A DNA stretch of 49,871 nt from Actinomycetota bacterium (GTDB taxonomy: Bacteria > Actinomycetota > Acidimicrobiia > Spongiisociales > UBA4744), in NCBI GenBank assembly GCA_013152275.1, contig JAADGS010000081.1, forward strand, positions 1 through 49,871. Reading direction: 5' to 3'. The notes beneath the pieces are model-generated. The model made no database searches. It had not been told where the DNA came from and saw only the letters and a list, made by a program, of their open reading frames with translations. This document shows, piece after piece, positions 3,906-36,380 of the stretch. Numbering within the stretch: the stretch's first letter is position 1; each line of letters opens with the position of its first letter. Made by a program: the position numbers and the translations under genes.

Positions 3906-4542
3906 ATGGCAAGAATGTGCAGAATAGGAACTGCCAGGGAGGTCTTGGACATGGGGTCCGGCAGGGGAGTTGCAGCCTGCCATCTGGCCGAAAACTATGG
4001 CTGTCGCGTCATCGGCACATGTCGGAGAACATGATCGAGTATGCGAGCGAGATGGCAAAGAGAAGGGGACTGGTACCTTGACCGGCAACCTTTGCGGCGT
4101 TCTGTGGGCCGGGAACGCCGCTTGCTGCGTTCTCCGCCTCGACGCACCTGCCGGGGGGCCTTCGTTGTGCGGGTCTTGCCATCGATATCGGATCGACCCG
4201 ACAACTCGACTCGAACGAAAGGGCCGGGTCGATCCGTGTCGACCAGGCGTTCCTGCCTCGGCATCGACACCCCGAACGTTACCGGCCAAGGCACCAGATG
4301 CGACGGCGAGTTTCAGAAGAGCAGATGCACACAAGCTGCCATTTGAAGATGGCGTCTTCGATATCGTCGTGGCGGAATGCACGACCGTACTTCCGGACAA
4401 GGAACGAGCATTCTCGGCATTCATTCGGGTGACAAAGCTTGGCGCGTCCGTCGGTGATCTGGAGATGACCTGGCAAAAGCCACCACCACGGGAGTTGGTG
4501 GACAAGGTTTGTTTCGCGCGCGGTGCATCACCTGCCTCATGA
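3906..4542 (+). pseudogene. Class I SAM-dependent methyltransferase, disrupted
   Basis: From ATG 3906: EVLDMGSGRGVAACHLAENYGCRVIG (motif I). Frameshift near 4017-4021 into SENMIEYASEMAKRRGL, insertion at 4072-4295, then DATASFRRADAHKLPFEDGVFDIVVAEC..DKERAF; the C-terminus decays. Confidence 0.8.
4072..4295. mobile_element. 224-bp MITE-like element
   Basis: Ends GGTACCTTGACCGGCAAC (4072-4089) and GTTACCGGCCAAGGCACC (4278-4295) are 15/18 inverted repeats; removing the segment restores CT^AG and the methyltransferase frame (RGLDATASF). Confidence 0.7.
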
Positions 4543-4959: not shown

Positions 4960-7053
4960 TCAGGATTCGGGAGCACCGTTGGAGATCCAGTCTTCGATCA
5001 TCTGGATCTGTGCATCGGAAAGGCTTCCCGACGGTGGCATCGGGCCGCCGAAGTCCTGGGAGCCCAGGAGCTTTTGGAGCACGATACTGGCATCGGGGTC
5101 ACCCGGCACGATGACGGGAGCATTGTCGCCACTGGTCATCACCGACTGGTAGCTGGAGGCATCCCATCCTCCGAGAGAACCGTGACACATCGAGCAGTCG
5201 GCGTCGAAGAGAGGCTTGATGTCGGCGACGAAGGTCGGTTCCTCCGTGGCAGTTGTGGGCCCGCCGGCGAGGGTGCGAATGAATCCAACCAGGTCTTCGA
5301 TCTGATGGGTCGTCAGAACCTGCCCCCAGGCGATCATTGCCGTGGCGGGGTGGCCGAGCTGGATCGTGGTGATGATCTCGGAGTCGCTGTTCGCGTCCTG
5401 GAACGCCGGGTCGATGAGCGATGGGCCGATCCCGCCGGACCCGTCGGCTGCATGGCATTGCGAACAGAACTCGTCCCAAATCTGCTGCGAGCTTCCTGCC
5501 ACCTGCTGAGGCGCGATCTCGGGAGGCAGCTCGACCGGCGGGTTCTTCTCCCATGACCGCAGGAACGCGACGACTGCGTCGATCTGGTCTTCGCTGAGCG
5601 GGCCGCCCGAGGCAACGCCGAACGGCGACATTCCCAGATCCGGCTGGCCTTTCGTTATGATCGCTTTGATCGTTGCGTTGTCGTGGGTGCCGAGATACTG
5701 GCTGGCGCTGATGGGAACGATGACTCTCGTCGGGTTGGAGGGGAGTGGGCCGCCTTCTCCAAATTCGCCGTGACACATCGAGCAGTTCTGGGAGAAGATC
5801 CGCTGACCCACGACTTCCGGGGCTCCCTTCGCCACCTTGACCGTGTAGGCCACCAGGGCATCGATCTGCTCGTTCGTGAGGACGTCTCCCCAGATGGGCA
5901 TCGTTTCATGCTCGGTACCCTCGGAGATCGCCTTGTACGCCGCATCCACCGTCGCGGCCGCGGGTACCCGTTTCCCGTGACAGGATGAGCAGTGTTGTGC
6001 GAAGAGCTTGTCTCCTCCCGGAGCCGACGCCGGGTCGACAACATACCGGGCCAGGGTCACGATGTCCTCGTCGGGAAGCTGGCCCGACCAGGACGGCATC
6101 GTCCGATGTCGGCCGCCTTTCATGATGATCGAGCGAACTTCGGTCTCGTCGGAGACACTGACTCCTGTGCCGTGACAGGTCGCGCAGTTTGCCGCGAAAA
6201 GGCGTTGGCCGTCAGGAGCGATGAGGAAGTTGACGAGGGCCGTTACGGCCGAAGGGTCGAGTTTGACGCTCCAGTTGGGAACATCGAGACCCTCGTGCGG
6301 CGCGAAGCCGGCCTCGAGGGCATCGCGAAGCCGGAACGGATCCGACTCTGCGAGGTCTGTGGCTTGATGGCACTCGGCACATTCGTCCCGGAAGACAGCC
6401 CAGCCGTTTGGTGTGGTGATGAAACCGACGAGGGCGTCGATCTCGTCGACGGAGAGGTCGGCACCCCACGCTGGCATGCCTTCGTGGCTGCCTTGTGCGA
6501 TGACTGCGTGCAGGTCGGTCCCCGGAGGAACCGCCAGGGAGGGGCCATGGCATGCGGCGCAGTTGGCGGCGTAGAGGGCGGCGACCTTGTCGGGCTGCTC
6601 CTCGCCGGCCAGTGGTGCCTGTTGACGGAGTGCTTGCACGGTCAGTGCGACGACTCCCACCAGCACCAGAGCCGTCACGCCGGTGATGCCGAGGCGGTCG
6701 CGGTAGTGGCGTCGAGGAGATCGGTCGAGAAGGGGCAGCGCGAAGAGCAGGCCGACGGCGATCGCCGGGATGACGATCACGCCGATCACCTCGAGATTGC
6801 CTGGGAAATACTTGAGGAGCTGGAAGACGAACAGGAAGTACCACTCCGGTCGTGGCATGTATGTCGCGTCTGCCGGGTTGGCCCTTGCTTCGAGCGGCGA
6901 GCCGAAGAAGTAGGCAAGGGCAACCAGAGCGATGAACACGATGAACATGACGACGGCGTCTTTGAAGATCGCTTCAGGGAAGAAGGAGATGCCCTTCTTC
7001 TTCTTCTCTTCCTCGTATTCGGCGAGGTATCGGCGTCGTTCTTCTTCGTTCAT
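4960..7053 (-). CDS. Cytochrome b subunit IV (PetD/QcrC-like) fused to seven c-type cytochrome domains
   Basis: FFP..D, ANP and PRPEWYFLF (PEWY) with three TM helices, then CAACH, CAECH, CATCH, CSSCH, CSMCH, CSQCH, CSMCH; ATGA overlap with cytochrome b. Confidence 0.92.
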   Translation of the reverse strand: MNEEERRRYLAEYEEEKKKKGISFFPEAIFKDAVVMFIVFIALVALAYFFGSPLEARANPADATYMPRPEWYFLFVFQLLKYFPGNLEVIGVIVIPAIAVGLLFALPLLDRSPRRHYRDRLGITGVTALVLVGVVALTVQALRQQAPLAGEEQPDKVAALYAANCAACHGPSLAVPPGTDLHAVIAQGSHEGMPAWGADLSVDEIDALVGFITTPNGWAVFRDECAECHQATDLAESDPFRLRDALEAGFAPHEGLDVPNWSVKLDPSAVTALVNFLIAPDGQRLFAANCATCHGTGVSVSDETEVRSIIMKGGRHRTMPSWSGQLPDEDIVTLARYVVDPASAPGGDKLFAQHCSSCHGKRVPAAATVDAAYKAISEGTEHETMPIWGDVLTNEQIDALVAYTVKVAKGAPEVVGQRIFSQNCSMCHGEFGEGGPLPSNPTRVIVPISASQYLGTHDNATIKAIITKGQPDLGMSPFGVASGGPLSEDQIDAVVAFLRSWEKNPPVELPPEIAPQQVAGSSQQIWDEFCSQCHAADGSGGIGPSLIDPAFQDANSDSEIITTIQLGHPATAMIAWGQVLTTHQIEDLVGFIRTLAGGPTTATEEPTFVADIKPLFDADCSMCHGSLGGWDASSYQSVMTSGDNAPVIVPGDPDASIVLQKLLGSQDFGGPMPPSGSLSDAQIQMIEDWISNGAPES

Positions 7054-7709
7054 TTCGATCGTTGTCGCTTCGGGGGCGCACTGATGCTGATGCGAACGAC
7101 GAGGAACAGGTGGATGCCGAGCAGCACGAGCAGCGCGGCCGGCAGCACCCAAACGTGGGTGCCGAAGAAGCGGGTCAGGGTTACCGCGGAGAGCTCGTCA
7201 CCGCCGCGAGCGACGCGAAGGAGCCACTCTCCGATGCCGGGGACGACGGCGATGATGCGAGTACCGACCGTGGTCGCCCAGTAGGCCTTCTGGTCCCAGG
7301 GGAGGAGGTAGCCGGTGAATCCGAAACCAAACACGATGAGCAGGAGCAAGACACCGGTGAACCACGTGATCTCCCGCGGGTATTTGTAGGCACCGTGGAA
7401 GATGACCCTGAGCATGTGCAGGACGGCGAGCAGCACCATCGCGCTGGCACCCCAGTGGTGCAGTCCCCGGATGAGCCAGCCCGCCGACACCCCCGTGGTG
7501 ATGTATTGGACACTGGCGTAGGCGTCCTGGGGACTCGGCACGTAGTAGATGGACAGCAGAATGCCGGTGACGATCTGGTTGATGGCCACGAACAGCGTCG
7601 CCGACCCGAGGGTGTACAGCCAGTTCACCTTCGGAATCTTGCGCAGGAAGAGAGTTTCCCAGATCCGGCGCCAGCCGGTGCGGTCGTCGATCCAGTCTGC
7701 GAGTGTCAT
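7050..7709 (-). CDS. qcrB: Cytochrome b6-like (N-terminal, split-type) subunit of a Rieske/cytochrome b complex
   Basis: W.DDR, QIVTGILL..YYVPS, GWLIRGLHHWGAS, LHMLR, GFTGYLLPWDQKAYWA, TLTRFF..HVWVLP; 219 aa. Confidence 0.95.
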   Translation of the reverse strand: MTLADWIDDRTGWRRIWETLFLRKIPKVNWLYTLGSATLFVAINQIVTGILLSIYYVPSPQDAYASVQYITTGVSAGWLIRGLHHWGASAMVLLAVLHMLRVIFHGAYKYPREITWFTGVLLLLIVFGFGFTGYLLPWDQKAYWATTVGTRIIAVVPGIGEWLLRVARGGDELSAVTLTRFFGTHVWVLPAALLVLLGIHLFLVVRISISAPPKRQRSK

Positions 7710-8182
7710 ACGTCCCAGTGCACCTCGAGTTGTTCACCTTCGACGCGCACATCGAAGGATTCGAGTGGTTTTGGCGGTGGTCCATCGAGCACCTGGCCGG
7801 TTTTGGAGAATACACCGTTGTGGCAAGGGCAGAAGAACGACTGCTCTTTTTCGACCCACCGAACCCGGCAGCCGAGATGGGTGCAGACGTTCGAGAGTGC
7901 GAGGTAGTCGCGGCCATTGTCCGTGAGAACGTAGACACCCGTCTCCTCCGTCTGGGTGACCCAGCCGGTGGTGCGATCGATCTGTGCCTTGAAGAGAGTC
8001 GGGGTGCCCATCTCGACCTGTCGAGTCGAACCGATCGGGACCCAGACGTCCTCGAGGCCGTCCTTGGAGGCCGGAGCGACCACGTAGGCGATCGCGGGAA
8101 CGCCGAAGCCGGCGGCGATAAGCCCGCCGATGGCCGCAACCATCTTCGAAAGAAGTGTGCGGCGACTTAGATCATCAGTCAC
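7706..8182 (-). CDS. qcrA: Rieske 2Fe-2S protein, Tat-exported
   Basis: SRRTLL twin-arginine motif plus TM helix; boxes CTHLGC and CPCHNG; GPPPKPL. Confidence 0.95.
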   Translation of the reverse strand: MTDDLSRRTLLSKMVAAIGGLIAAGFGVPAIAYVVAPASKDGLEDVWVPIGSTRQVEMGTPTLFKAQIDRTTGWVTQTEETGVYVLTDNGRDYLALSNVCTHLGCRVRWVEKEQSFFCPCHNGVFSKTGQVLDGPPPKPLESFDVRVEGEQLEVHWDV

Positions 8183-8457
8183 TGTGGTTTCCCCTCCGCG
8201 GCCCAGAGTGTACGGCTTGGGACATCAGGAGGCCAAATGGCGGTCTATAACGCGGTGAGGGGTCCGATGGGACTCCTCATGGCGGCGTTCCCTGGCTTGC
8301 CAAGGCCGGGTTATACGGCGCCGCTGCCGGCGATGCCGTCGTGGGGTGTCTCGAGGACCCGGGATTTGTTCCGGGTGCAAGTCCGTCCTCCGCCGCACAG
8401 TCGTGGTACTCGTGCGAAGGAACTCCGTACGGCCGGGCTTGGTGCGAACGGGCACGT

Positions 8458-9612
8458 TCAGGGTGTGGTGTCTGCGAATCGAACGAACGATTTGGCATAC
8501 AAGTTTGCCTCGCTCTTGTCCACCTGGGGGAGCCCGTCCAGGCGGAACAATGCAATTCGCCCGTTTTCGCGATCGGCGATCGCGAAGATTCCGTCGGGGC
8601 CGATCGCCAGCTTTTCGGGGAAGTTGAACGTGTCCTCGCCGGGCCCTCCTGCTCCGAACTCGCCGATGAGGTCCCCGTCGGGAGAGAGGACGACGATGTG
8701 GCCCTGGCCGGTGCATTTGTTCTGGAACCGGAACGTGTCGACGACATATACGTTGCCGTCGGGGCCGACGGCAACCGAGCGGGGTAGCTGCCAGAAGCCG
8801 ACGATTTGATTCTTCTCATCGGGTTGGCCCGAAACCCACAGCACCGTGCCTGTCTTGTCGAGGGCCACGACGCGCCGATTCAGCGTGTCTGCCACATAGA
8901 ACCGGTCCAGGTTCCGGTCGATGTCGAAGGCGTCCGGGAAGCTGAAGCCGCCAACCTCGCGAGACTTCTTTCCGGTTCCCCAGTAGTCGACGACCTTCCC
9001 GTCTCGGTCGAAGAAGTACAGACCGTCATTGCTCGAGACCACGATGAAAGCTCCCCACACGCGAACTTCGAACGGTGTGAATCCATCCTGGCCGAAGACG
9101 GAAGGATCCTGATCGGCCGCCGGATAGGACTCGATGTACCGGCCATCGCCGGAGAACACGAACACCTGGTGTGCGTTCCAGTCCGCGACGTACAAGCGGC
9201 TGCCCGTCTCATCGAAGGTAAGCCCGTAGGGGCTCGTCAGGCGTCCCTGGCCCGCTTCTCTGACGAAGGTGCCGTTCTCATCGAATTCCAGGAGCCGGGC
9301 GTGACCGGTATCGGCGACCCATACGCTGCCGTCGGGTCCGACCGTCACACCCATCGGACGCAGCAGTAGGTCCTCCGGCTTCGTTCCGATTCCGTAGATG
9401 GAACGTTCGATGGTCATCGGACATCCCTCCGCCTGCGCCGAGGTGTTCGAAGGGGGTGCCTCCGGTGGCCGCAGAAGGAACAGGATCAGAATGCCGAGAC
9501 CCACCGCCGCGGCGCCGAGCAAGGCGAGAAGCAGCCACAGCAGACGCCGCGAGGCCGTCGAAGTATCCGGTGTGCCCGGATCCTCCGCTGTGGGCTGTGG
9601 CGATTCGTTCAT
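8458..9612 (-). CDS. Membrane-anchored NHL-repeat beta-propeller protein
   Basis: N-terminal TM helix; repeats of P.G....DG.VYVAD..N.R type (PMGVTVGPDGSVWVADTG, FPDAFDID..FYVADTLNRR, FNFPEKLAIGPDG). Confidence 0.9.
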   Translation of the reverse strand: MNESPQPTAEDPGTPDTSTASRRLLWLLLALLGAAAVGLGILILFLLRPPEAPPSNTSAQAEGCPMTIERSIYGIGTKPEDLLLRPMGVTVGPDGSVWVADTGHARLLEFDENGTFVREAGQGRLTSPYGLTFDETGSRLYVADWNAHQVFVFSGDGRYIESYPAADQDPSVFGQDGFTPFEVRVWGAFIVVSSNDGLYFFDRDGKVVDYWGTGKKSREVGGFSFPDAFDIDRNLDRFYVADTLNRRVVALDKTGTVLWVSGQPDEKNQIVGFWQLPRSVAVGPDGNVYVVDTFRFQNKCTGQGHIVVLSPDGDLIGEFGAGGPGEDTFNFPEKLAIGPDGIFAIADRENGRIALFRLDGLPQVDKSEANLYAKSFVRFADTTP

Positions 9613-10268
9613 GATCCCTCCGTTGTCGTAGGAGAGCCCCCGAGGCGTCTTATGGCGTCGAGGGCTTCTTCACTATCAGGGTTGAAGTCTGCGGCGCGCC
9701 GGTACTGTTCGAGGGCGCCGGCGGTATCACCAAGCTGCTCCAGTGCCTGACCGAGGCCGAAGTGGGAACTGAAGTCGAATGGAAAGTCGGAGATGGCGTT
9801 CTCGTATGCCACCTTCGCTCCGGACGCGTCGCCGCGTGCCAGCAGGAAATCCCCGAGGGCCACCAGCGGTGCGAACGCGCGAGAACGCGGGGCCGCATCG
9901 GCGCTCCGGTTGAGGTAGTCGATGGCGGTGTCGGGATCGGTGTCTCTGGCGAGGAGACCGAGCTGGAACAGCGCCATCCAGTCGTTCGGATCCAACTCGA
10001 GCGCATCATGGAAGGCCTTGGCGGCTGCGGTTTCGTCGCCTGCGTCGAGATAGGTGAGGCCAAGTCCGGTGTGGGCCCAGGCCGATGGCTTCTCGTCGAT
10101 GCGTGCCTGCCAAATGGCAGCGTCTCTCGCCGCGGCGGTGGCGGGCGGTTTCTCCGGGCGAAGCTGGAGTACCACCGTGACTGCACCGAGGCCGAGAACG
10201 ACGAGCGTGAGCGCAACGACGGCGATCAGGAGCCCTTGAGGGACGGATCCGGACGAAGGTCTCGCCAT
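9609..10268 (-). CDS. Membrane-anchored TPR protein
   Basis: TM helix followed by about four TPR units (AHTGLG..ALELDP, ALFQLG, LVALG, HFGLG..FNP). Confidence 0.88.
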   Translation of the reverse strand: MARPSSGSVPQGLLIAVVALTLVVLGLGAVTVVLQLRPEKPPATAAARDAAIWQARIDEKPSAWAHTGLGLTYLDAGDETAAAKAFHDALELDPNDWMALFQLGLLARDTDPDTAIDYLNRSADAAPRSRAFAPLVALGDFLLARGDASGAKVAYENAISDFPFDFSSHFGLGQALEQLGDTAGALEQYRRAADFNPDSEEALDAIRRLGGSPTTTEGS

Positions 10269-10915
10269 TACGGCTGCGCTCCATCGTCATGCCGGACGAG
10301 CGTCACGGAGGCTCGTTGCTCCTCCAGCCAGGAACGGTAGGCCTGCTCCTTCCTGTCTTTTTCGAGCTGGTCCCGAATGTCATTCTTCACTTCGAGCAAC
10401 GGCTGGTCTCCGAAGTCGCCTTTGTGCGCCTCGTAGTACGCGGCTATCTCGTCGTCGGACACCGAGACATCCTTCACGATTTCGGCGAACACGAGCGATC
10501 CCACGAGCTGAAGTCTGATGCGCCGCTTCAGCTCCCTCCGATCGAGTCCGAGGTTCTCCATCCAGGCTTTGAACTCCTTGGGTGAATCGAACTTACTCTG
10601 CATGGAGTCGAACTCCGCATCCACGTCTTTTGCGGACACGTCGATGCCGACCCGTTCGGCCTCCTGTTCGATGATGATGTCGTCCACGAGCGATTGAAGG
10701 GCCATCTCACGCCACTGTTGGGGATCCGTGACGGCTCCACCGTGCATCGACGTGAGGGTCGAGAGTCTCCGATCCAACTCGGAGCGGTGAATTGGCACGC
10801 CGTTGGCCTCGGCAACAACAGGACCGGATCGCAGCAGCGTGGTGGCTGCAAACGCGATCCCGACCGCGATGGCGACGGCAACGGCCGAGAGGATCAGGAT
10901 GGTTCGGCGTTTCAC
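10268..10915 (-). CDS. SurA/PrsA N-terminal-domain foldase (no parvulin domain seen)
   Basis: Signal/TM segment, VAEANGVPI, LQSLVDDIIIEQEA..GI.VS, VSDDEIAAYYEAHK, PLLEVK.DIR. Confidence 0.85.
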   Translation of the reverse strand: MKRRTILILSAVAVAIAVGIAFAATTLLRSGPVVAEANGVPIHRSELDRRLSTLTSMHGGAVTDPQQWREMALQSLVDDIIIEQEAERVGIDVSAKDVDAEFDSMQSKFDSPKEFKAWMENLGLDRRELKRRIRLQLVGSLVFAEIVKDVSVSDDEIAAYYEAHKGDFGDQPLLEVKNDIRDQLEKDRKEQAYRSWLEEQRASVTLVRHDDGAQP

Positions 10916-11763
10916 GGTTCTCCTTGTGTTTTTGATTTGCGCGGGAAAGCCGGCAGGTCACGGAGAGGGATCTTCCCGCCGGCATGGCAGGCGTCCGAGC
11001 ACCAGCGGGTCGTGTGACAGCTCGTGCAGGGACCTTGGGTAGGTTGGACAGTCGAAGTGCCGTGCGTCGCCACCCAATCCTCGGGATGCGAGACGTCGTG
11101 GCAGGCCTCGCACGTTGCCCGCTTGTGACAGGCGGCACAGGCGCCCGGGTCGCTGCCGTCGAACGGTGCCGCATCGACGAGGCCTCCGTGATGATCCCCG
11201 ATGGTACCTGGGAGATGGCACGTGTCACAGTCGGGCGTCGCCGGTCTCGGGTAGCCGAACAGGAAGAAGTGCCCCACGGATCCGGGTGTGTGACAGGTGT
11301 CGCAGAGTGATGGATCTTTCACATCGTGACAATCGGCGCAGGTGTCTTCGGGTGGAGGCAGTGGTTCGGGGTGGAGCGTGTCGGTATGGCAGGTCGCACA
11401 GGCGACACCCAATGAGGCGTGCTCGGCATGGTTCAACAAGAGATCGCCGAAGCGGCGCTGCTGCGCGTAGTCGGCGTGGCACTCCAGGCAGGAAGCGAAG
11501 TCCTGGTCGGCCGAGGGTGCCGGACGGAGTTTCCACAAGGGTTGCACCCAGTTGTCGAACAGCGACGAGCTCCACGAGATTGCCCGCTCGGGGATTCCGG
11601 AGCTGGTGTCCGTTCCGCTCCATGTCGCTGCCGCGCGCTCGACGGTTATCCCCAGGTCGTCGCGGAACGTGGGCGACACGGAGATCGCGATGATCAAGGC
11701 ACCCTCGATGAGAATGAGGATGAGGGCTGCAAGCGCAACCAGGAGTGCTCTTCGTGAGGTCAC
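10912..11763 (-). CDS. Membrane-anchored multiheme cytochrome c (8 CxxCH + 1 CxxxCH)
   Basis: TM anchor; CLECH, CATCH, CADCH, CDTCH x2, CAACH, CEACH, CTSCH, CSDACH. Confidence 0.92.
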   Translation of the reverse strand: MTSRRALLVALAALILILIEGALIIAISVSPTFRDDLGITVERAAATWSGTDTSSGIPERAISWSSSLFDNWVQPLWKLRPAPSADQDFASCLECHADYAQQRRFGDLLLNHAEHASLGVACATCHTDTLHPEPLPPPEDTCADCHDVKDPSLCDTCHTPGSVGHFFLFGYPRPATPDCDTCHLPGTIGDHHGGLVDAAPFDGSDPGACAACHKRATCEACHDVSHPEDWVATHGTSTVQPTQGPCTSCHTTRWCSDACHAGGKIPLRDLPAFPRKSKTQGEP

Positions 11764-12563
11764 GGCTTGTCTCCCATCTGGAAGAGACGCTGCTCACGGT
11801 GCACGGCGTGGCGCGCATGGCACGCCTCACATTCCACCCGTTCGTGGCACGTCGTACACGCTGCGGTACCTGTGATCTCGACGCTGCGATAGTGCTCGGC
11901 AAGCCACGTGTCGGCATGGGGGATGTCTGTGCCGTGGCATCCCGCGCAATACGAAGGCTGATGGCAGAGTTCGCACGCGTCGACTCCGACGGTCTGCTGT
12001 ACGGATCCGTGGGTTGTCTGCCAGTCGGCGGGATGCGGTATCTGGACGCGAACGTGGCACGCGGTGCAGAACTTCGGCGTATCGTGGCACGCCGCGCACT
12101 CATCGGGAGCATCGAGCGCCGCGGCCCCATGGGTGAAGGTGAACTGGTCTGGATGTGGTCCGGACTGGAGGTCGACCTCCAGGTGGGCGGTGTTGCCGTG
12201 ACACGTGGTGCAGTCGGCTTCTGCTTTGGGATGGTGCTCCATCTCGGCGAGATCGTGACACGTCGTGCAGGGTTCGGAGGCCAGCACGTCTTGGGCGAGG
12301 TTCAGGCCTGTCGCCTTGGCCGCCAGCTCGCGCGGCAGCGTCGGCAGGTACTCGATGACACCCAGAAGCCCTGGGCGCGTATGACAGGCCAGGCAGGGCA
12401 CCTGATCGTGCACCGCCACGGCGGCGGATGCCGTCGCGGTTTCGTGGCAGGAGCCGCAGAACGACTGTGACGCCGGAGCCCTGGTCAGTCCCGAGAGCAG
12501 CACGATTGCCACGACGCCGCCCAGTACGGGGAGCCACCACTTGATCTTGAACCGGCGCGCCAT
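11760..12563 (-). CDS. Decaheme cytochrome c with a NapC/NirT-like N-terminal module
   Basis: TM helix then FCGSCH..H..V.CLACH; 10 CxxCH motifs; C-terminal HP..W...H repeats. Alternative GTG start at 12569. Confidence 0.9.
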   Translation of the reverse strand: MARRFKIKWWLPVLGGVVAIVLLSGLTRAPASQSFCGSCHETATASAAVAVHDQVPCLACHTRPGLLGVIEYLPTLPRELAAKATGLNLAQDVLASEPCTTCHDLAEMEHHPKAEADCTTCHGNTAHLEVDLQSGPHPDQFTFTHGAAALDAPDECAACHDTPKFCTACHVRVQIPHPADWQTTHGSVQQTVGVDACELCHQPSYCAGCHGTDIPHADTWLAEHYRSVEITGTAACTTCHERVECEACHARHAVHREQRLFQMGDKP

Positions 12564-12569
12564 GGCCAC

Positions 12570-13382
12570 CTACTTGTCGGTCTGGGGGTGGCGAGGCCGG
12601 TCGGCCTCCAGATTCTCTTCCCCGGTCGTGTGGCAGCGTACGCAGGTGGCGGGTTGGTGACAGGAAAAACAGGTGTTGTTGGCGGAAGTCTGGACGACGC
12701 TCGGGTGGGTCGCCTTCCAGGAGACGTCTGCACCGCCTTGGGGATGGTGGCAGGCGTCGCAATCGTCCCGGGATCTCGATGCTTCCAGCTGATGGCACTT
12801 GGCACAGGTTTCTGGTCCCGCCTCGAAGAACGCGAGCGGGTGGGTGCTGGTGGCCCAGTCTGCAGGATGAGGTATCTCGACCCCGTGGCAGGCCGTGCAG
12901 AATTGTGTCGTGTCGTGGCAGAGCGTGCAGCTCTCCGCGTTCGCCTGAAGGCCCACTCCGTGTTCGGTCGCCCATCGGTCCGCATGGCTGCGCGGAGACG
13001 GGATGAACGAGAGGCTATGGCATAAGGTGCAGCGGCCGGGGGCGAAGGCGGCGGGCGTCTGACCATGACACGCGAAGCAGCGATCCATGGAGGGAGTGAC
13101 CCCATGGTCGGCAGGGTCGTGGCACTGGGAGCAGTTGGCATTCGAAACCGCGAAATGCGCCTTGTGGGTGAACGTGGGGAGAGGGGCGACGTCGCCCGCC
13201 GTCAGGGATTTGTCGAGGTTCTCGTGGCACTGAGAGCACTCCTTGAAGGCCGGCAGATCTGCGGCGGCCGGAGGGCTCGTCGAGGTTGGTGAAGCCGTCT
13301 CCACCTGCTGGCGCTGAAGGAGGAACCATCCTCCAACCGCAGCGAGGAGAATCAACACGGCGACGGTGAGCTTGCGCGCCAT
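12570..13382 (-). CDS. Membrane-anchored decaheme cytochrome c
   Basis: TM/signal segment, S/T/P-rich linker, 10 CxxCH motifs, c3/c7-like FTH.AH motif. Confidence 0.92.
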   Translation of the reverse strand: MARKLTVAVLILLAAVGGWFLLQRQQVETASPTSTSPPAAADLPAFKECSQCHENLDKSLTAGDVAPLPTFTHKAHFAVSNANCSQCHDPADHGVTPSMDRCFACHGQTPAAFAPGRCTLCHSLSFIPSPRSHADRWATEHGVGLQANAESCTLCHDTTQFCTACHGVEIPHPADWATSTHPLAFFEAGPETCAKCHQLEASRSRDDCDACHHPQGGADVSWKATHPSVVQTSANNTCFSCHQPATCVRCHTTGEENLEADRPRHPQTDK

Positions 13383-13388
13383 CGTCGA

Positions 13389-13796
13389 CTAGGCCTCCAT
13401 TCCTGTGCTTCCGTCCAGAAGGTCGCCGAAGCTGACATCGAAGGCTTCGATGATCGCACGCTGGGCTCGAGCACATACGGGCTTGAGCGCACAGTCGTCG
13501 CTCCGGTCGCAGCTGCACGGATCTCCGACGCAGTAGTTGACCGTGAAAGGGCCTTGGATGGCCTCGATGACTTCGAGGACGGTGATTGAAGCAGGTGAGC
13601 GAGCCAGTGTCACACCACCGCCGACACCACGCCGAGTGGTGACGATGCCCGCCCGAGCCAAGGTGGAGACGATCTTGCCGAGAAACGCCGTCGGCACACC
13701 TTGTGCCTCCGCGATCTCGCCGGTGCCTGCGTGCCCGCGCCGGGCGATTTCCAAAACGCACCGCAGCGCGTAATCAACCTCGCGGGTCATCACCAT
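13389..13796 (-). CDS. Rrf2-family transcriptional regulator, probably Fe-S binding
   Basis: REVDYALR, EIA..Q.VP.AFL.KI..L..AGIV...RG.GGG, IT.LEVIEAI.G, Cys cluster CVGDPCSCDRSDDC; GGAG RBS upstream. Confidence 0.93.
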   Translation of the reverse strand: MVMTREVDYALRCVLEIARRGHAGTGEIAEAQGVPTAFLGKIVSTLARAGIVTTRRGVGGGVTLARSPASITVLEVIEAIQGPFTVNYCVGDPCSCDRSDDCALKPVCARAQRAIIEAFDVSFGDLLDGSTGMEA

Positions 13797-14065
13797 GATG
13801 AGTCTCCAACCTCTGCATATCAGTCCTGACGGCGTATCGGACATCAGGGAGCCTAGGTCGGCTGCTCCGGACGGAGCAAGACCGAAGGACCCCGATGTGG
13901 GATCAACGGACCTTCCATGTCGTTGAACACTCCGTGTGTTCGGGAGCCGGTGACCGGGAACCGGATGGTGGTCATGAGGTTCCGGCCACGAGTATGCCAG
14001 GACTCGACCGTGACGGTTCGATGCCGGCCTTCGCCGGCCGGCACACTCTTGGATGGCCGTTGCCT

Positions 14066-16429
14066 TCAAAAGTTGCTGCTCCCGTGATAGTGGCACTTCG
14101 TGCACGCGCCGGGGTTCCGCGAGTGCCTCATGGGGAAGCCACCATGACAGACGAAACAGAAGTTCTGCGCGAAGTCGGACCACGAGACCCATAGCGCGTC
14201 GAAGTTGGTGAGCGTTCCGGTCCGTGCACCGTTGGGACTCACCATGTTCTCTTTCAGCATGTAGGCGTTGGAGGAACCGTGGAAGTCATGGCACGCGGTG
14301 CAGGCGAGATTGCCGGAGCCGTTGGGACCGTGCCTCGCACTGTTGTTCCAGTTCGCGGCGGTGAACCTGTCGTGCGGACGTCCGTCGGCGTCGGTGGACG
14401 CGGTGTCATCGACGAGCCGGATGTCGTACGGAACGGTCGCTCCTGCAGAGATCGGAGCGGTCGTCGTGGGATCGATGTGGCACTTTTCGCAGAACGAGGC
14501 GATGTCACCTCGGGTGAGATCGGCCGATCCGGTATCCCAGTTGACGATCCACTTGGTGGTGATGTCGGAGGGATCGACCAGCTTGGACGTCGAGGCGCCA
14601 TCGTTTTGATCCGCGAGGTGAGGGTTATGGCAGGAGACGCACTCGACCTGACGTGTGCCCCCGTCCTGGTCGGCGGCCGCGATTGGATGGTGGTAGATCC
14701 TGATCGGATTCCCATCGGCCGTTGTCGTGTCGTTGACGGCGGCGGCGAATGCGTCATAGGGATTGGTGCCTCCGGACGTGTTCGGCGTGGTGGAGGTGTG
14801 ACAGGTGAAGCAGGTCTGCTCCTCGTCGGCGATGGTGAGAGCGTTGAAGTCGGATCCATGGGGTTGATGGCACTCGAGGCACTGGATCTCTGCCTTCGCC
14901 GGGTCCTTCGCTATCAGCAAACCGTGGGCGCTGGCGTCGAATGGGCTGTAGTCCCATCCCTTCAGACCCGGGTAGGGCGCTCCCGACCCGTGGCACGTGT
15001 AGCAGTAGGTGTTGCCGATGGGAGATGCCGTGGGGGAGTAGAGCCATGTGCTGCCGTTCCACACCCGGAGCAACTCGGTCATCTCGGATCGGAGCCTGTG
15101 TGGCGTGTGGCAGTCGGTGCAGGTGAGTTCGTAGCCGTCCGTGGCTGTGGGTACGGGATGGTATGACGTCTTCGTGGACGCTCCGATGACGCTCTCTCCG
15201 AATGCGGACTTGATGTCGGTCGAAGCACCGGTGCCGTCGTGGCACTGATAGCAGGTTTCTTTCTCGGTGGGCCGGGCGAACAGGTGGATCGGTGCGGAGG
15301 CTCCGTGGACGCTGTGGCAGTTCTGGCAGAGATTGGTCGAATCGGAGTATCCCCCATGAGGGTCGGTCACAGACGCCGCTGCATACAGTGACAAGTGGGC
15401 CATCTGCACGGTCACGGTGCCGGCGGCCACGTCGACACTGGCGGCGCCGGTGGTGACCCACCGATCCGAGGACCACACTTGGACAACGGTCGTGTCTTCG
15501 GGGTATCCGGAGGGCAGCGGGTATTCGGGGGGAATCTCGAAGGCGAGGGCAAGGGTGGCCGGTGCCGACGGGTCGAACCGTGTGCCGGACGGACCGAGTT
15601 CGAAGGAACGGGAGACCAGTGTCCGGTTCGTGTTCGCATCGGGCGGGTGGGGGATCTGGCGGATCGTGAACACGGTGTCCGAGTCCACTGCGCCGGCTGG
15701 AATGTGGAGGGCCACGGTGCCTGTCGTCGGCACCAGATCACCGCCCTCGGGTCCCACCGTCTGTGCCATGGCGACATTGTCCGACGAGACCACGGATGAT
15801 GGATTGCTCCGATTGCCGGCAAGATCGATGGCGATGACTCTGTAGGAGTAGATACCCGGCGCCGGAGGCACGTCCCGCAGCTCGGGGACGGCTGTCGTGG
15901 AGAGATCGGTCCACGGACCGCGTGCGTCTGCCGACCGCTGAACGAGCCAGGTCACCACGTCGGGGTCGTCGGGTTCAGACCATCTCACCCAGTTGTCCCG
16001 TGCGGCCGTGGCGGACACGTCCTGCGGGGATGCCGGCGGCCCGTCGTCGTTCCCCTGACGCTGTGATACCACACGGACGGTGAAGACCTTCTCGTAGTCG
16101 GGAGCGCTGACCGAGAGTTGGTAACGGCCCGCCGGTACCTCGGCCCCCGTTGCGGTGCGTCCTCTCCACGTGAACGCATAGTTGCCCTCGACCGTATGGA
16201 CCCATTGGAAGACGGGGGTTCCGCCCTCGGCTCGCACGGCAAACGTCACCGGCATCGCGGCCTGCGTCCGTACACGGACGGTTGCCCAATCGTGACTCGG
16301 AGCGACCACCGTGGTGTTGCGCGCGGACACCGTCGGGACGGTTCCAGGAGCCGTGACCATGGCTGTGGCAACAAGAGCGATAGCCAGGTAGAACATAGGG
16401 CCCAGAACTCCAGACCATTTTGGTCGCAT
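14066..16429 (-). CDS. Secreted 11-heme cytochrome c with N-terminal Ig/Fn3/ZU5-like domains
   Basis: Hydrophobic signal; W.GR...G..VPAGRY (FlgD-Ig-like); YSYRVIAID.AGN.S (Fn3-like); GPEGG..L.IPAGA..ELGPSG (ZU5-like); then PHGGYS and 11 CxxCH. Start 16429 or 16396. Confidence 0.9.
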   Translation of the reverse strand: MRPKWSGVLGPMFYLAIALVATAMVTAPGTVPTVSARNTTVVAPSHDWATVRVRTQAAMPVTFAVRAEGGTPVFQWVHTVEGNYAFTWRGRTATGAEVPAGRYQLSVSAPDYEKVFTVRVVSQRQGNDDGPPASPQDVSATAARDNWVRWSEPDDPDVVTWLVQRSADARGPWTDLSTTAVPELRDVPPAPGIYSYRVIAIDLAGNRSNPSSVVSSDNVAMAQTVGPEGGDLVPTTGTVALHIPAGAVDSDTVFTIRQIPHPPDANTNRTLVSRSFELGPSGTRFDPSAPATLALAFEIPPEYPLPSGYPEDTTVVQVWSSDRWVTTGAASVDVAAGTVTVQMAHLSLYAAASVTDPHGGYSDSTNLCQNCHSVHGASAPIHLFARPTEKETCYQCHDGTGASTDIKSAFGESVIGASTKTSYHPVPTATDGYELTCTDCHTPHRLRSEMTELLRVWNGSTWLYSPTASPIGNTYCYTCHGSGAPYPGLKGWDYSPFDASAHGLLIAKDPAKAEIQCLECHQPHGSDFNALTIADEEQTCFTCHTSTTPNTSGGTNPYDAFAAAVNDTTTADGNPIRIYHHPIAAADQDGGTRQVECVSCHNPHLADQNDGASTSKLVDPSDITTKWIVNWDTGSADLTRGDIASFCEKCHIDPTTTAPISAGATVPYDIRLVDDTASTDADGRPHDRFTAANWNNSARHGPNGSGNLACTACHDFHGSSNAYMLKENMVSPNGARTGTLTNFDALWVSWSDFAQNFCFVCHGGFPMRHSRNPGACTKCHYHGSSNF

Positions 16430-16667
16430 ATGCACGGAAACCCCTCGGCTTGCTGGCCGCGGGCAGTGTACCTGCACGGTGTTCTCGCTGCCACCCTCCG
16501 TGTTGACGCCCCCCCTGCGAAGAGGCTATATTTGCACCATAAGAGGACACCATTCCATGGGGTTATTTTGGAGTGAAAAAGTCGGATTTACGAAGAGGTA
16601 GGGTCCGAGAAGGGATTTGGGGTATGCTGCCGACAGGCGGTATGCCACCGAGAGACGGGAGGCCATT

Positions 16668-17715
16668 GTGAGAGGGAAGTGGAGAATCTGGCTGCTGGCA
16701 TGTCTGGGAGCCGTATTCATCCTTGCGCTTGGATCAGCCGCTTCGGCACAGCCGGAGCAAGCCGACCCAGTCGGAACCAACGTGGCGCCTCACGGGGGGT
16801 ACTCGTCGTTGACCAACCAATGTCTGCAGTGCCACGATGTGCATGACGCTGCCGGACAGTATGCCTTGATGGAAAAGGCGAGCGTCAGCGCAGTGTGCAA
16901 CACGTGTCACGCGCCCGGCAGCACGACCGCGCCGACCGGTGGTCCGGGCGGCGGTATCACGGGGACCGTGTCCTCGCGAGCGGTGTACACGGAAACGGGT
17001 GGCAGCGAACACACCCCGGGTGTGAATAACATCGATGGCAATACGTTGACCCAGTCTGCATGGTCCTATCCCGGGCCGCCGACTGGTAACTCGGGGGTTG
17101 CCGCAGGCATCGGAACGACGAGCGACACCGACGGTGGTCTCTACTGTGCGTCGTGTCACACGCCGCACGGTACGTTTGGCCAGGTCGTGAACGACTGGAC
17201 GAAGGCGGCCGATGAAGGCACGTCGATCTCGGTCGACAACGGCGGGGCACCGCTGATTTGGACCACCAAGTGGCTCGACTACGACGAGAGATGCGTGGGC
17301 GTTCTGCGCCAACTCGGGTGACGTCATCACGGCAACCGGCGGCAACGAGTCCTGCATGAGCGCAGGCACCAGCGGTTCGTCGTGGGCGACGGTGCTGGAT
17401 GCCGCAGGCGTGACCAAGTCACTGTTTGCGTACAACCTGCTGTCTGCCGGTCCGAACCATCAGTACTCCCCGGGACAGGCGACATTCAGGACCGTGAACG
17501 AAGGTACCGACGTATATGACTGGTGTGCGACTTGCCATACGAGCAAGGTAGATACGGCGCACAACCACTACACGACGTGCTACGCGTGTCACGGGAATCC
17601 GAGCAACGATGTGAATTCGGACGACTTCCCGCATACGAGCACCGCCGACACCTTGTTGAAGGAGTATCCGGACGGGTTGTGTCTGAACTGTCATACATCG
17701 GGCAGCTTGCCATAG
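16668..17715 (+). pseudogene. Secreted hexaheme cytochrome c, split by one frameshift at about 17286-17289 (real lesion or sequence error)
   Basis: GGAGG RBS and GTG 16668, signal peptide ..AASA. CLQCH, CNTCH, CASCH in frame 1; CATCH, CYACH, CLNCH in the +1 frame, which is open from 17290 (DAWAFCANSG..). Confidence 0.85.
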
Positions 17716-17743
17716 CCGACCCGGACTGAACAGACGAGAAGAG

Positions 17744-17775
17744 AACGTGGGGCGGGAGGTTTCCCGCCCCACGTT
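17744..17775 (+). terminator. Stem-loop, probable intrinsic terminator of the hexaheme gene
   Basis: AACGTGGGGCGGGA-ggtt-TCCCGCCCCACGTT, a perfect 14-bp stem 28 nt after the stop. Confidence 0.75.
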
Positions 17776-33222: not shown

Positions 33223-34413
33223 ATGGACATACATGCGCTTCGCGCCGACACCCCCGGATGTTCCGACGTCGTTCACTTCAACAATGCCGGCACTTCGCTG
33301 CCTCCACGGCCGGTCATCGACGCGCAGATTGCCTGGATCCGTCGGGAGGCCGTCACCGGCGGGTACGAGATGGCGGAAGATCTCCAGGAGCAGGTCGCCG
33401 GTGTCTACCACTCCCTTGCCCGATTGATCGGTGCCGAAGCGAGTGAGATCGCGCTGATGGAGAACGCCACCGCTGCCTGGTGGCAGGCGTTCCACGGCCT
33501 CGACCTGCACGGCAAGACGGTGCTCACCTCCGAGGTCGACTACGGGGCGAACTTCATCACCTATCTGCAGGCTGCCCGGCGCGACGACGTGAACACGGTC
33601 GTCGTTCCCTCGGATGAGTCTGGGCAGATCTCCCTCGAGGAACTCGAGAAGCATCTCGATGGGCGCGTCGGGCTGCTCGCCGTGTCACACATGCCGACGA
33701 ACGGCGGGCTCGTCAACCCGGCAGCAGAGATCGGGGCGCTGGCCCGCAAAGCAGGCGTTCCGTTCCTCCTCGATGCGTGTCAAACGGTCGGCCAGATGCC
33801 GATCGATGTTGACGCCATCGGGTGCACCTTCCTCTCGGCGACCGGTCGCAAGTACCTGCGGGGGCCGCGGGGCACCGGTTTCCTGTACGCGCGATCGTCG
33901 TTCCTGGAGGTCGACGAACCGTTGATGCTCGATCACTTCGGTGCTTCCTGGGTCGAGCCCGACCGGTACGTTCTGCGTCCCGACGCCCGCCGTTATGAGA
34001 CGTGGGAATCGAATCACGCGATCAAAGCCGGGCTGGGAGTCGCAGCCGAGTATGCGATGTCGGTGGGACTCGAGTCGATCGCGGGGCGGGTCTTCGCCCT
34101 TGCGGCAGAACTGCGGGACAAGCTCGCCGGGATCGGGGTGCCCACGTACGACCTCGGTCGGGTGAAAGGGGGGATCGTCACCTTCTCGGTGCCCGGAGTG
34201 GATTCGGCAACCGTCAAGCGAGAGCTCCGTGCGCAATCCATCAACACGTCGCTCGTCGATTCCACATCCACGCTCATCGACGCCAGGCGCCGGCACCTTC
34301 CGGAGATGGTTCGCGCGTCGGTGCACTACTACAACACGAGTGCAGAGATCGACACACTGATCGCCGCGCTCGAGCCGTGGTCTTCCCGTTCTCGTGACGC
34401 TTCACGGGGATAA
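33223..34413 (+). CDS. Class V PLP aminotransferase / C-S lyase-like
   Basis: HFNNAG, DACQ.VG, SATGRKYLRGPRG, RASVHYYN. Confidence 0.9.
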   Translation: MDIHALRADTPGCSDVVHFNNAGTSLPPRPVIDAQIAWIRREAVTGGYEMAEDLQEQVAGVYHSLARLIGAEASEIALMENATAAWWQAFHGLDLHGKTVLTSEVDYGANFITYLQAARRDDVNTVVVPSDESGQISLEELEKHLDGRVGLLAVSHMPTNGGLVNPAAEIGALARKAGVPFLLDACQTVGQMPIDVDAIGCTFLSATGRKYLRGPRGTGFLYARSSFLEVDEPLMLDHFGASWVEPDRYVLRPDARRYETWESNHAIKAGLGVAAEYAMSVGLESIAGRVFALAAELRDKLAGIGVPTYDLGRVKGGIVTFSVPGVDSATVKRELRAQSINTSLVDSTSTLIDARRRHLPEMVRASVHYYNTSAEIDTLIAALEPWSSRSRDASRG

Positions 34414-34438
34414 TCCGGTCCAACCGTCACGAGAACGG
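34386..34438. repeat. Palindromic repeat family B, copy 2
   Basis: CCGTTCTCGTGACG-N25-CGTCACGAGAACGG, same arms and spacer length as 23227-23279; extra half-site GTCACGAGAA near 34465-34474. Confidence 0.85.
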
Positions 34439-34484
34439 ATGGAATGGTGGGGGACCTCTAAACTGTCACGAGAAGGAGGTGCGT

Positions 34485-36380
34485 ATGCATCGAGATCGGC
34501 TCACCCGCCCGCTCGTCCGGGAAGATGGGGTTCTTCGACCGGCATCATGGGACGAGGCGCTCGACAGAGCAGCCGGCGGCATTCAGGCCGTCACCAGTCG
34601 GTACGGTCCGGGAGCGTTCGGGGTGATGAGCTGTTCCAAAGGCACCAACGAGATGAACTACCTCGCACAGAAGTTCGTCCGTATGGCCGTTGGCACCAAT
34701 ACGATCGACTCGTGTAACCGTACCTGACACGCTCCCAGTGTCGTCGGTCTGGCGACAGTGTTCGGAGCAGGTGGCGGAACGAGTTCCTACAGGGAAGCCG
34801 AGGACACCGGCCTCATCGTCCTGTGGGGCTCCAACGCGCGCGACGCACACCCGATCTTCTTTCATCATGTCCTCAAGGGGATCCGCCACGGTGCAAAGCT
34901 GATCGTCATCGATCCCAGGCGCAGCTCGTCCGCGACGTTCGCCGATCTCTGGCTCGGTCTGGACGTTGGATCCGACATCGCCCTTGCCAACGCCGTCGGG
35001 CGCGAGATCATCACCGCCGGCTTGCACGATCGCGAGTTCATCGAACGCGCCACGAGCGGCTTCGATGATTACCGGACCGCCGTGGACGCGTGGACGCTGG
35101 ACCGGGCGGCGAACGTCACCGGCGTTCCTGCAGATGCGATCTCCGAGCTCGCCCACGCCTACGCGCTCGCGCCGACGGCCCAACTGTGCTGGACTCTCGG
35201 CATCACCGAGCATCACTGTGGGACCGACAACGTCTTCTCACTGATCAACCTGGCATTGCTCACCGGACACATCGGCCGGTGGGGATCCGGTCTGGTTCCC
35301 TTGCGGGGCCAGAACAACGTCCAGGGAGGAGCGGACATGGGTGCGCTTCCGAACAAGCTCCCCGGCTTCAAGGACGTGTCGGACGATACGGAGCGGGCCC
35401 GGTTCGAAGCAGCGTACGGTACGAAGCTGCCGGCCGAACCGGGATGGCACATCTCGCAGATGTTCGACGCGATGGAACGTGAGGATCTCAGGTCCCTGTA
35501 CATCATTGGAGAGAACCCGGCACAGTCCGAAGCCGATGCGACGAGGGTGCGCAAGCTTCTCGCCGGCCTCGATCATCTCGTCGTGCAAGACATGTTCCTC
35601 ACCAAGACGGCAGAGCTTGCCGATGTGGTCCTGCCGGCGGCGGCAGGCTGGGCCGAGACGGACGGCACCTTCACCTCGTCGGAACGTCGGGTGCAGCTCG
35701 TGCGAAGAGCTTTGGATCCGCCCGGTGAGGCGAGAGACGACCTTGTGATCATCGCCGACCTTGCCGCACGCATGGGCTGTGACTGGGGCCATCCGGTTGC
35801 AGAGGAAGTGTGGGATGAACTGCGGGGGCTCTCTTCGATCCATGCGGGAATGAGCTATGAGCGTCTGGCATCTCACGGCGGTCTTCAATGGCCGTGCCGC
35901 GACACGGACGATCCCGGTCGGCCGTTCCTTCACGGCCGTCTCTGGGACGATCCGGTGACCGGCCCCAAGGCACCGTTCACGCCCGTCGAGTGGAGTCCCC
36001 CCGTCGACCGGCTCGACGAGGAGTTTCCCATCAGGCTGACCACGGGACGCCGACTCGATAGTTACAACACCGGTGTGCAATCCGGACGGTACTCGTCGCC
36101 GAAGCGATGGGGTGAGAGCATCGATCTCTCACCGGAGGACGCCGCCGCCCTCGGGCTTGCCAATGGCGATCTGGCGCGTGTCACGTCGAGACGTGGATCT
36201 GTCGAGGCGCCCGTACGCACCGATCCCAACCTGAGACCGGGCCTGGCGTTCCTGACGTTCCATTTCCCCGATCAGGTGGACACGAACGTGCTCACGTTGG
36301 ATGCGTGGGATCCCAAGTCGGGAACGTCCGAATACAAGGCGACGGCGGTCAGGATCGAACGGCTTGGAGAGCCCTCATGA
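34485..36380 (+). CDS. fdhF: Selenocysteine-containing formate dehydrogenase catalytic (Mo/W-bisPGD) subunit
   Basis: AAGGAGGT RBS; in-frame TGA at 34725-34727 in IDSCNRT-U-HAPSV (FdhF active-site motif); LRGQNNVQG, GENP, GTFTSSERRVQ, LTTGR. Confidence 0.93.
34728..34768 (+). promoter_or_regulatory. Bacterial SECIS element
   Basis: 11 nt after the UGA: stem TGTCGTC (34739-45)/GGCGACA (34751-57) with GGTCT loop; lower pairing GCTCC/GGAGC is possible. Confidence 0.8.

Follow-up and report, generated by a model that had tools for sequence, protein, structure and literature searches.

Gene content and organisation of the locus

The window analysed here, a stretch of 49,871 nt of contig JAADGS010000081.1 (assembly GCA_013152275.1, in the following genome G000), carries twelve genes between positions 4960 and 17775. 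Judged from their sequences, they form a conserved cluster resembling the omcS locus of Geobacter, located in a monoderm member of the Actinomycetota and joined to a dedicated Rieske/cytochrome b module. All twelve genes were confirmed at the coordinates given in Table 1. The CxxCH tally per gene of 7+8+10+10+11+3+3 amounts to 52, and one CxxxCH at residue 255 of the product of 10912-11763 raises it to 53, while shuffling of five of the proteins (2000 times each) yielded a maximum of 1-2 heme motifs per protein. The first-pass annotation had also counted 53 motifs (7+9+10+10+11+6); this total holds if the CxxxCH is included, but its six-heme protein is split into 3+3 by a frameshift.

The dense packing described earlier for the run from Rrf2 to NHL and for the three Rieske/cytochrome b genes was borne out by junctions of +6 to -4 nt. 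From Rrf2 to NHL they measure +6, 0, -4, -4, -1 and -4 nt, the Rieske/cytochrome b junction measures -4 nt, and the ATG of subunit IV at 7053 likewise lies 4 nt into cytochrome b. Wider gaps are found between NHL and Rieske (275 nt) and between the 11-heme gene and Rrf2 (269 nt). The locus consists of two modules that differ in their histories and is not one evolutionary unit. Module 1 consists of the Rieske protein, cytochrome b and the subunit IV-heptaheme fusion, module 2 of the hexaheme and 11-heme proteins, Rrf2, the three anchored multihemes MhcA, MhcB and MhcC, and the SurA, TPR and NHL proteins.

Table 1. Features of the locus (positions in the window; TM, transmembrane helix)
Position	Strand	Feature	Basis
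4960..7053	-	Subunit IV (3 TM, PEWY Qo motif) fused to 7 class-I monoheme c domains, 697 aa	Pfam PF00032, PF13442; TM scan
7050..7709	-	Split (b6-type) cytochrome b, 4 TM, without heme-ci Cys (WLYTLG)	
7706..8182	-	Tat-type Rieske protein, box 2 CPCHNGVF	
8207..8236	-	Promoter-like element TTGGCC-N18-TACACT upstream of Rieske	Alignment, genus genomes
8458..9612	-	Membrane-anchored NHL beta-propeller	
9609..10268	-	Membrane-anchored TPR protein	
10268..10915	-	SurA-N/PrsA-like extracytoplasmic chaperone	
10912..11763	-	MhcA, N-terminally hydrophobic multiheme, 8 CxxCH + 1 CxxxCH	
11760..12569	-	MhcB, decaheme with NrfH/NapC-like N-terminal tetraheme	
12570..13382	-	MhcC, N-terminally hydrophobic decaheme	
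13389..13796	-	Rrf2 regulator with C-terminal Cys residues	
14066..16477	-	MhcD, secreted 11-heme protein, FlgD-Ig + ZU5 domains, likely start 16429	
16668..17715	+	OmcS-like secreted hexaheme, frameshifted in this assembly	

The secreted hexaheme protein

The reading frame of the hexaheme gene is broken after position 17289, leaving three heme motifs on either side. At this site genome G001 has 5 extra bases, and the same was found in near-identical contigs of the runs X1, X2 and X3 (the comparison covers four metagenome runs, all of one study), while run X4 has no row over the site, its piece stopping at 17282. An intact product of 350 aa, P0277, is identical to both halves, and the gene is also intact in G001. 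One X2 contig stops exactly at 17289, so that a real null allele is possible.

Six CxxCH motifs occur in 69 of the 77 rows of the hexaheme family. Seven spare histidines are kept in at least 73 of these rows, and neither CxxCK nor a conserved methionine is present; these histidines would be enough for a bis-His ligation of all six hemes. A single N-terminal hydrophobic stretch, without lipobox and without LPXTG, suggests a secreted protein that lacks a membrane anchor. Family profiles gave OmcS as the best PDB match (E 1.3e-6 and 3.1e-9), with hemes 1-4 collinear in the 1.3e-6 alignment and hemes 5-6 spaced differently. The cluster likely belongs to the OmcS family and to the osc (omcS companion) type.

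Two copies of the G001 orthologue, which shares 265 of 348 residues with P0277, were modelled together with 4 of the 12 hemes. The predicted homodimer was arranged head to tail and scored 0.63 compared to 0.00 for the best control; the runs agreed in at least 92% of the contacts at a predicted local distance difference test (pLDDT) of at least 89. Of 30 solved pairs, 20 attained the mark for a dimer, as did 1 of 23 single chains, although these counts hold only roughly for this job. In the model, a C-terminal face (292-348) contacts an N-terminal face (45-67, 91-96, 130-138, 160-171 and 264), and since both faces do not overlap, an open polymer would be allowed. The modelled interface takes in H59 of the CxxCHxxH motif, the heme-5 cysteine C307 and the conserved C-terminal LP tail. 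Conservation was higher at the interface than elsewhere (0.62 vs 0.47; p 1e-4 by permutation), with the reservation that the interface residues flank heme motifs; 56 of 62 are identical in P0277. In the 1.3e-6 profile alignment, H59 is aligned to His16 of OmcS, which we take to be the neighbour-supplied heme-5 ligand. As described in the available text of Filman 2019 (PMC6584659), the hemes of OmcS are stacked in sequence order and one heme-5 ligand, a histidine, is provided by the neighbouring subunit.

Multihemes and companion genes of module 2

MhcB comprises a membrane anchor and an NrfH-like tetraheme, and its family profile matched NrfH with an E of 7.6e-16. PF03264 matched 19 of the 37 rows of the family, the MhcB of the window not being among the matches. 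The heme-1 motif CxxCHxM is a criterion of NapC/NirT quinol dehydrogenases and was also seen here in NrfH. Its methionine is missing from the window copy and from 6 of 8 orthologues; G303 and G339 have it. Since MhcB has no heme-1 methionine in the genus, a role as an ImdcA-type quinol dehydrogenase is doubtful; the earlier description as a NapC-like decaheme stands for the architecture.

The heme region of MhcD begins with a PHG..CxxCHxxH..CxxCH module, as does that of the hexaheme (hhalign 98.5%). This module was present in 29 of 33 hexaheme and 13 of 18 MhcD-like open reading frames (ORFs) compared to 2 of 289 other multihemes (overlapping loci unmerged), which gave rise to the idea of MhcD as a cap. 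The C-terminal cysteines of Rrf2 may constitute an Fe-S or redox sensor. Catalytic multihemes of the NrfA or HAO type were considered and rejected, because CxxCK occurs in no protein of the locus and PF02335 gave no match. The same holds true for a porin-cytochrome conduit (Mtr/Pcc): neither MtrB (0/1, weak control) nor Omp85 (0/1 and 0/5) was found in the genomes searched, G000 included, in keeping with the lack of a porin gene noted for the locus.

G001, G024 and G053 have the genes of module 2 in the same order, and so do G002 and G006 over the extent of their contigs. Outside the class, the module recurs in G303, G339, G353 and G555, and the co-conservation in several classes of Actinomycetota on which the first reading depended is therefore observed. 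Among 301 genomes of the order, 6 encode MhcB and 5 the hexaheme. Of 401 genomes of the phylum, 46 gave a match to the hexaheme profile at 1e-10, many of these matches being partial. Twenty phylum hexaheme loci, picked from 45 other genomes by score and extent of contig, had as neighbours NHL (15), TPR (14), MhcB-like (10), MhcD-like (9) and SurA (3) genes and Rieske/b (1). NHL is accordingly the most constant neighbour of the hexaheme family, although it is not directly adjacent in the window. In three loci of other Actinomycetota (L121, L128 and L135), hexaheme and NHL genes form several pairs, and a single protein of 1374 aa there combines six hemes with Ig and beta-helix domains.

A partial paralogous cluster lies on another contig of the genome (G000:C71:9237-23300, L092). 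It encodes an OcwA-like 12-heme lipoprotein, an ImcH-like and a split CbcL-like protein, a hexaheme paralogue with 7 motifs, and paralogues of MhcC, SurA and NHL. The lipoprotein matched 6i5b with an E of 9e-15, an entry which we take to be OcwA (as 6r2q is taken to be MtrA and 7tfs OmcE). As this is the best OcwA match of the genome, a surface counterpart of OcwA is not to be placed within the locus itself.

The Rieske/cytochrome b module

Module 1 contains the complete set of Rieske boxes, 4-TM cytochrome b with histidine ligands and PEWY subunit IV, and for 6 of the 7 hemes of the fusion a candidate methionine ligand was identified. Box 2 of the Rieske protein is devoid of both potential-raising residues, Ser and Tyr, and the protein would be of the low-potential, menaquinol type. 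For these residues in yeast, -130 and -65 mV are given, plus one exception, in the available text of PMC12954380.

The promoter-like element ahead of Rieske is conserved in the alignment of all three genus genomes. The sigma-70 scan did not list it, and its sigma assignment is an assumption of ours. The word CCTGATG occurs both upstream of Rieske (8220-8229) and upstream of Rrf2 (13825-13848), in the latter case within an inverted repeat; this could be an operator, but it is not above chance. An actinobacterial bcc-aa3 supercomplex was rejected as an identity of the module, as the QcrA/B/C models remained below the cut-off and no COX1 was found.

The subunit IV-heptaheme fusion was found in 33 of the 301 order genomes. 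Of 56 GTDB loci retrieved for it, 52 are titled Chloroflexota and 2 Actinomycetota, the other 2 being short unrelated matches; none of the 54 real loci contains a module-2 gene. A further protein with at least five hemes is encoded in 46 of the 52 Chloroflexota loci and an ImcH- or CbcL-like gene in 42, compared to 8 and 6 of 18 Acidimicrobiia loci outside the genus (counts which include some short contigs). The Chloroflexota loci (L032-L085, from metagenome-assembled genomes across the Anaerolineae) present Rieske/b/heptaheme amid ImcH-like, CbcL-like and 6-10-heme genes. The module shared with Chloroflexota is a candidate for a conserved gate of extracellular electron transfer (EET), and no description of it was found in the literature searched.

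A second Rieske/cytochrome b set of G000 (C10:47000-63200, L094) has as neighbours a flavin/Fe-S oxidoreductase, a tetraheme, NarGH and a diheme membrane protein. In G053, module 1 is followed by a comparable set of Rieske/b and oxidoreductase.

Host and respiratory gene content

G000 (3.07 Mb, 64% GC, rated 100% complete) probably belongs to a monoderm of the Acidimicrobiia within the Actinomycetota. The monoderm actinobacterial host proposed earlier agrees with the failure to find Omp85 and MtrB and with most named hexaheme relatives being labelled Actinomycetota. In detail, these labels read Acidimicrobiia, Thermoleophilia, Coriobacteriia or Actinomycetota; discordant ones are 'Gammaproteobacteria' for the G001 orthologue, one Acidobacteria and one Clostridiales. 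The metagenome runs holding the locus are labelled hydrothermal vent metagenome.

Heme-copper oxidases, including nitric oxide reductase, were found in none of the three genus genomes, compared to 37 of 38 relatives (among the 37 the unpublished G034). NosZ and acetyl-CoA synthase were likewise found in 0/3, and no RuBisCO motif was found in G000, while menD is present in 3/3. Complex I, an uptake hydrogenase and formate dehydrogenase are encoded in the genome. The frame of the formate dehydrogenase alpha subunit (34392-36380 of the window, + strand) has an in-frame TGA near 34728 in the context C-N-R-T-stop-H, which probably encodes selenocysteine. At G000:C64:146693-150891 (L095) lie an Otr-family octaheme, its 7-heme/cytochrome b partner and sulfur-transporter genes, with a TtrA-like enzyme of the complex iron-sulfur molybdoenzyme (CISM) family nearby. 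In the window, a DUF772 transposase-like ORF is located at 278-1252, and the region of about 4070-4300 acts as a multi-copy repeat in matching metagenome contigs.

Proposed electron route and alternatives

On balance, we lean towards an outward conduit of a monoderm anaerobe, leading from menaquinol to the surface through two juxtaposed modules and ending in a cytochrome filament. In this conduit, menaquinone would be reduced by NADH, H2 or formate, for which the enzymes are encoded. The Rieske/cytochrome b/subunit IV complex would oxidise menaquinol at its Qo site, probably in a Q-cycle, and pass the electrons along the seven tethered class-I hemes; the ImcH- and CbcL-like oxidases encoded elsewhere in the genome may act as alternative gates. 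Membrane-tethered MhcA, MhcB and MhcC would carry the electrons onward outside the membrane, where the secreted hexaheme, in line with its weak homology to OmcS and the modelled dimer, may polymerise head to tail, giving a heme wire of the OmcS type that crosses the wall or reaches past it. Based on the NHL gene of Geobacter and on synteny, NHL, TPR and SurA could serve as folding or assembly factors for the wire, and more speculatively MhcD may cap or anchor it. Passing from His/Met to bis-His hemes calls for acceptors of fairly high potential, and a Q-cycle gate would suit relatively high-potential ones, for example Mn(IV), reactive Fe(III) or an anode.

Several observations weigh against this interpretation. 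In this assembly, and perhaps in part of the population, the frame of the hexaheme is broken, and the sole hexaheme match in G002 is a paralogue. The likeness to OmcS is weak by itself, since a control profile of MhcB also matches OmcS (3.3e-5) and the G001 hexaheme as a single sequence had no PDB match; the pass of the dimer model may stem from likeness to the solved OmcS filament. With regard to the link between the modules, 27 of the 33 order genomes with the fusion have no MhcB, Rieske/b occurs in only 1 of the 20 phylum hexaheme loci, module 1 appears to have a promoter of its own, and electrons from His/Met hemes would face an uphill transfer to bis-His wires (which in Thermincola span +100 to -300 mV). 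Moreover, the loss of oxidases is not general, as 5 of 7 other module-2 genomes retain heme-copper oxidases, and G000 encodes other electron sinks (Otr-like octaheme, NarG, Ttr-like, bd).

Most of the points concerning the link are shared by the explanation that the adjacency reflects a mere clustering of cytochrome genes, which we consider unlikely, yet the most serious of the alternatives. Module 2 would then still be an EET or nanowire system, its wire fed by MhcB or by ImcH/CbcL-like proteins, and Rieske/b/heptaheme would serve, for example, the Otr-like octaheme or the OcwA-like lipoprotein. Besides the promoter-like element and the redox mismatch, the different phylogenetic spread of the modules fits this explanation, as do the ImcH/CbcL-like genes adjoining the module-2 paralogue on C71 and module 2 itself in G024. 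The modules are directly adjacent in this genus only; in G053, module 1 lies about 11 kb from the multiheme cluster, with ccm genes in between. Against mere clustering, all 6 MhcB genomes of the order carry the fusion, although these lineages are related and not independent. Furthermore, module 2 of G303, a genome from outside the class, encloses a different Rieske/b with a ci cysteine and a monoheme subunit IV, which branches outside the heptaheme clade (0.91). This independent second recruitment and the oxidase missing from the genus strengthen the link, so that a functional connection of module 2 with Rieske/b is plausible. The proposal that the locus is wired to its own Rieske/b complex is retained in this form, but not as a single unit, given that the Rieske fusion mostly occurs without module 2 and that the Rieske module has, in this genus, a promoter-like element of its own.

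The first-pass annotation held that the direction of electron flow cannot be read from the sequence. From the genome content it can at least be argued, and the outward direction is favoured by inference. An inward conduit, bringing electrons from reduced minerals, an electrode or a partner cell to menaquinone and on to nitrate (Nar) or O2 (bd), appears improbable. NarG and bd are encoded, the passage from the wire to the His/Met hemes would run downhill, the runs carry the hydrothermal vent label, and according to the accessible part of the literature OmcS is also used for electron uptake in Geobacter. However, the inputs are quinone-reducing, no cytochrome-c-fed oxidase was found, and neither acetyl-CoA synthase nor a RuBisCO motif was detected as described above. 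In addition, a reverse Q-cycle costs about what bd or Nar returns and would net almost nothing. That the multihemes act as a capacitor bound to the wall, or relay electrons over a short distance to soluble acceptors (humics, chelated metals, sulfur oxyanions), with the hexaheme as a small oligomer, deserves still less credence, since the open head-to-tail geometry with the conserved LP tail at the modelled interface and the co-conservation of NHL/TPR with the hexaheme speak for a long-range wire, even though the hexaheme may be partly broken in the population and the available texts report an Anaerosoma tenue with 18 multihemes but no Fe(III) reduction (PMC9686372) and some EET in Geobacter without OmcS (PMC13194489).

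The outward conduit can be extended to a bolder version, which we put forward only tentatively. The OmcS-like branch, with its LP docking tail and named members nearly all from Actinomycetota, might in several classes build genuine nanowires that cross the wall and have an adhesin-bearing 11-heme protein as their cap. Where Rieske/b was recruited, which would have happened more than once, the wire would be charged by a proton-motive Q-cycle replacing the lost oxidase, making it a Q-cycle-energised nanowire of a monoderm bacterium.

How electrons pass a monoderm wall is an open question on which the hexaheme family bears. The hexahemes are short and diverse, a docking tail is predicted for them and their companions form a small fixed set, so that polymerisation and assembly are directly testable. 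If the outward conduit exists, cytochrome-filament respiration would extend to uncultured Actinomycetota, the host would respire on minerals or other cells beyond its wall, and coupling to a Q-cycle would lift the energy yield of EET above that of ImcH/CbcL-type gates. Suitable culture conditions might combine H2 or formate with oxides of Mn or Fe or with an anode.

Comparison with known systems

The osc machinery is reportedly widespread and ancient. In the literature searched, no description of the cluster in Actinomycetota was found; genomes of this kind may be among those given in Shen 2025 or its supplementary material. The available text of PMC10954620 does not contain 'actino', that of bioRxiv 2026.05.27.727921 does not mention Actinomycetota, and that of PMC12008989, a survey of UBA5794, contains neither 'heme' nor 'electron transfer'. 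The literature consulted also includes 10.1101/492645, PMC9473688, PMC11279179 and PMC11936953. The earlier statement that no characterised actinobacterial pathway is known has to be qualified: according to the available text of PMC9686372, the Anaerosomatales (OPB41) have 17-18 multiheme genes and include the obligate Fe(III) reducer Parvivirga hydrogeniphila with its multiheme clusters. They belong to a different class, their pathway has not been worked out, and the same text mentions neither Rieske nor OmcS.

Module 1 resembles b6c-like split Rieske/cytochrome b complexes in its four-helix cytochrome b, separate PEWY subunit IV and fused c-type heme; we liken the fusion of subunit IV and cytochrome c to the QcrC type of Bacillus. 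It differs in having 7 or 8 tandem c domains, no ci cysteine and a Rieske protein without Ser and Tyr, and in being surrounded by multihemes instead of an oxidase.

For the whole locus, an analogy to the ImdcA-PdcA-CwcA-OcwA conduit of Thermincola had been proposed. As far as the available text of PMC7911101 goes, both have a monoderm envelope and a porin-free chain, in which a decaheme in the membrane and multihemes as relays are joined by an OmcS-like hexaheme; that of Thermincola, CwcA, could not be purified. An OcwA-like lipoprotein is also encoded in G000, on C71, if 6i5b is OcwA as assumed. In contrast, the phylum is another one, Rieske/b is not part of the Thermincola model as available, and MhcB lacks the heme-1 methionine. 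The analogy therefore remains valid for the monoderm host and the hexaheme, but in gene content the omcS locus of Geobacter is closer.

In Geobacter sulfurreducens, omcS/omcT are accompanied by the osc operon (GSU2494-2505), and the NHL gene GSU2505 stands beside omcS, according to the available texts of PMC13194489, PMC12307469 and PMC9070056. The locus described here shares with it a secreted hexaheme with CxxCHxxH at heme 1, collinear hemes 1-4 (with bis-His ligation predicted here), companion multihemes, chaperone-like genes and an NHL-repeat gene, which is adjacent in Geobacter and near the hexaheme here. Compared to OmcS, the protein is shorter, with closely spaced hemes 4-6 and a conserved LP tail. 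The host is a monoderm in which no Omp85 or porin was found, and the cluster additionally comprises the NapC-like and other anchored decahemes, Rrf2 and the Ig/ZU5 11-heme protein, with Rieske/b alongside.

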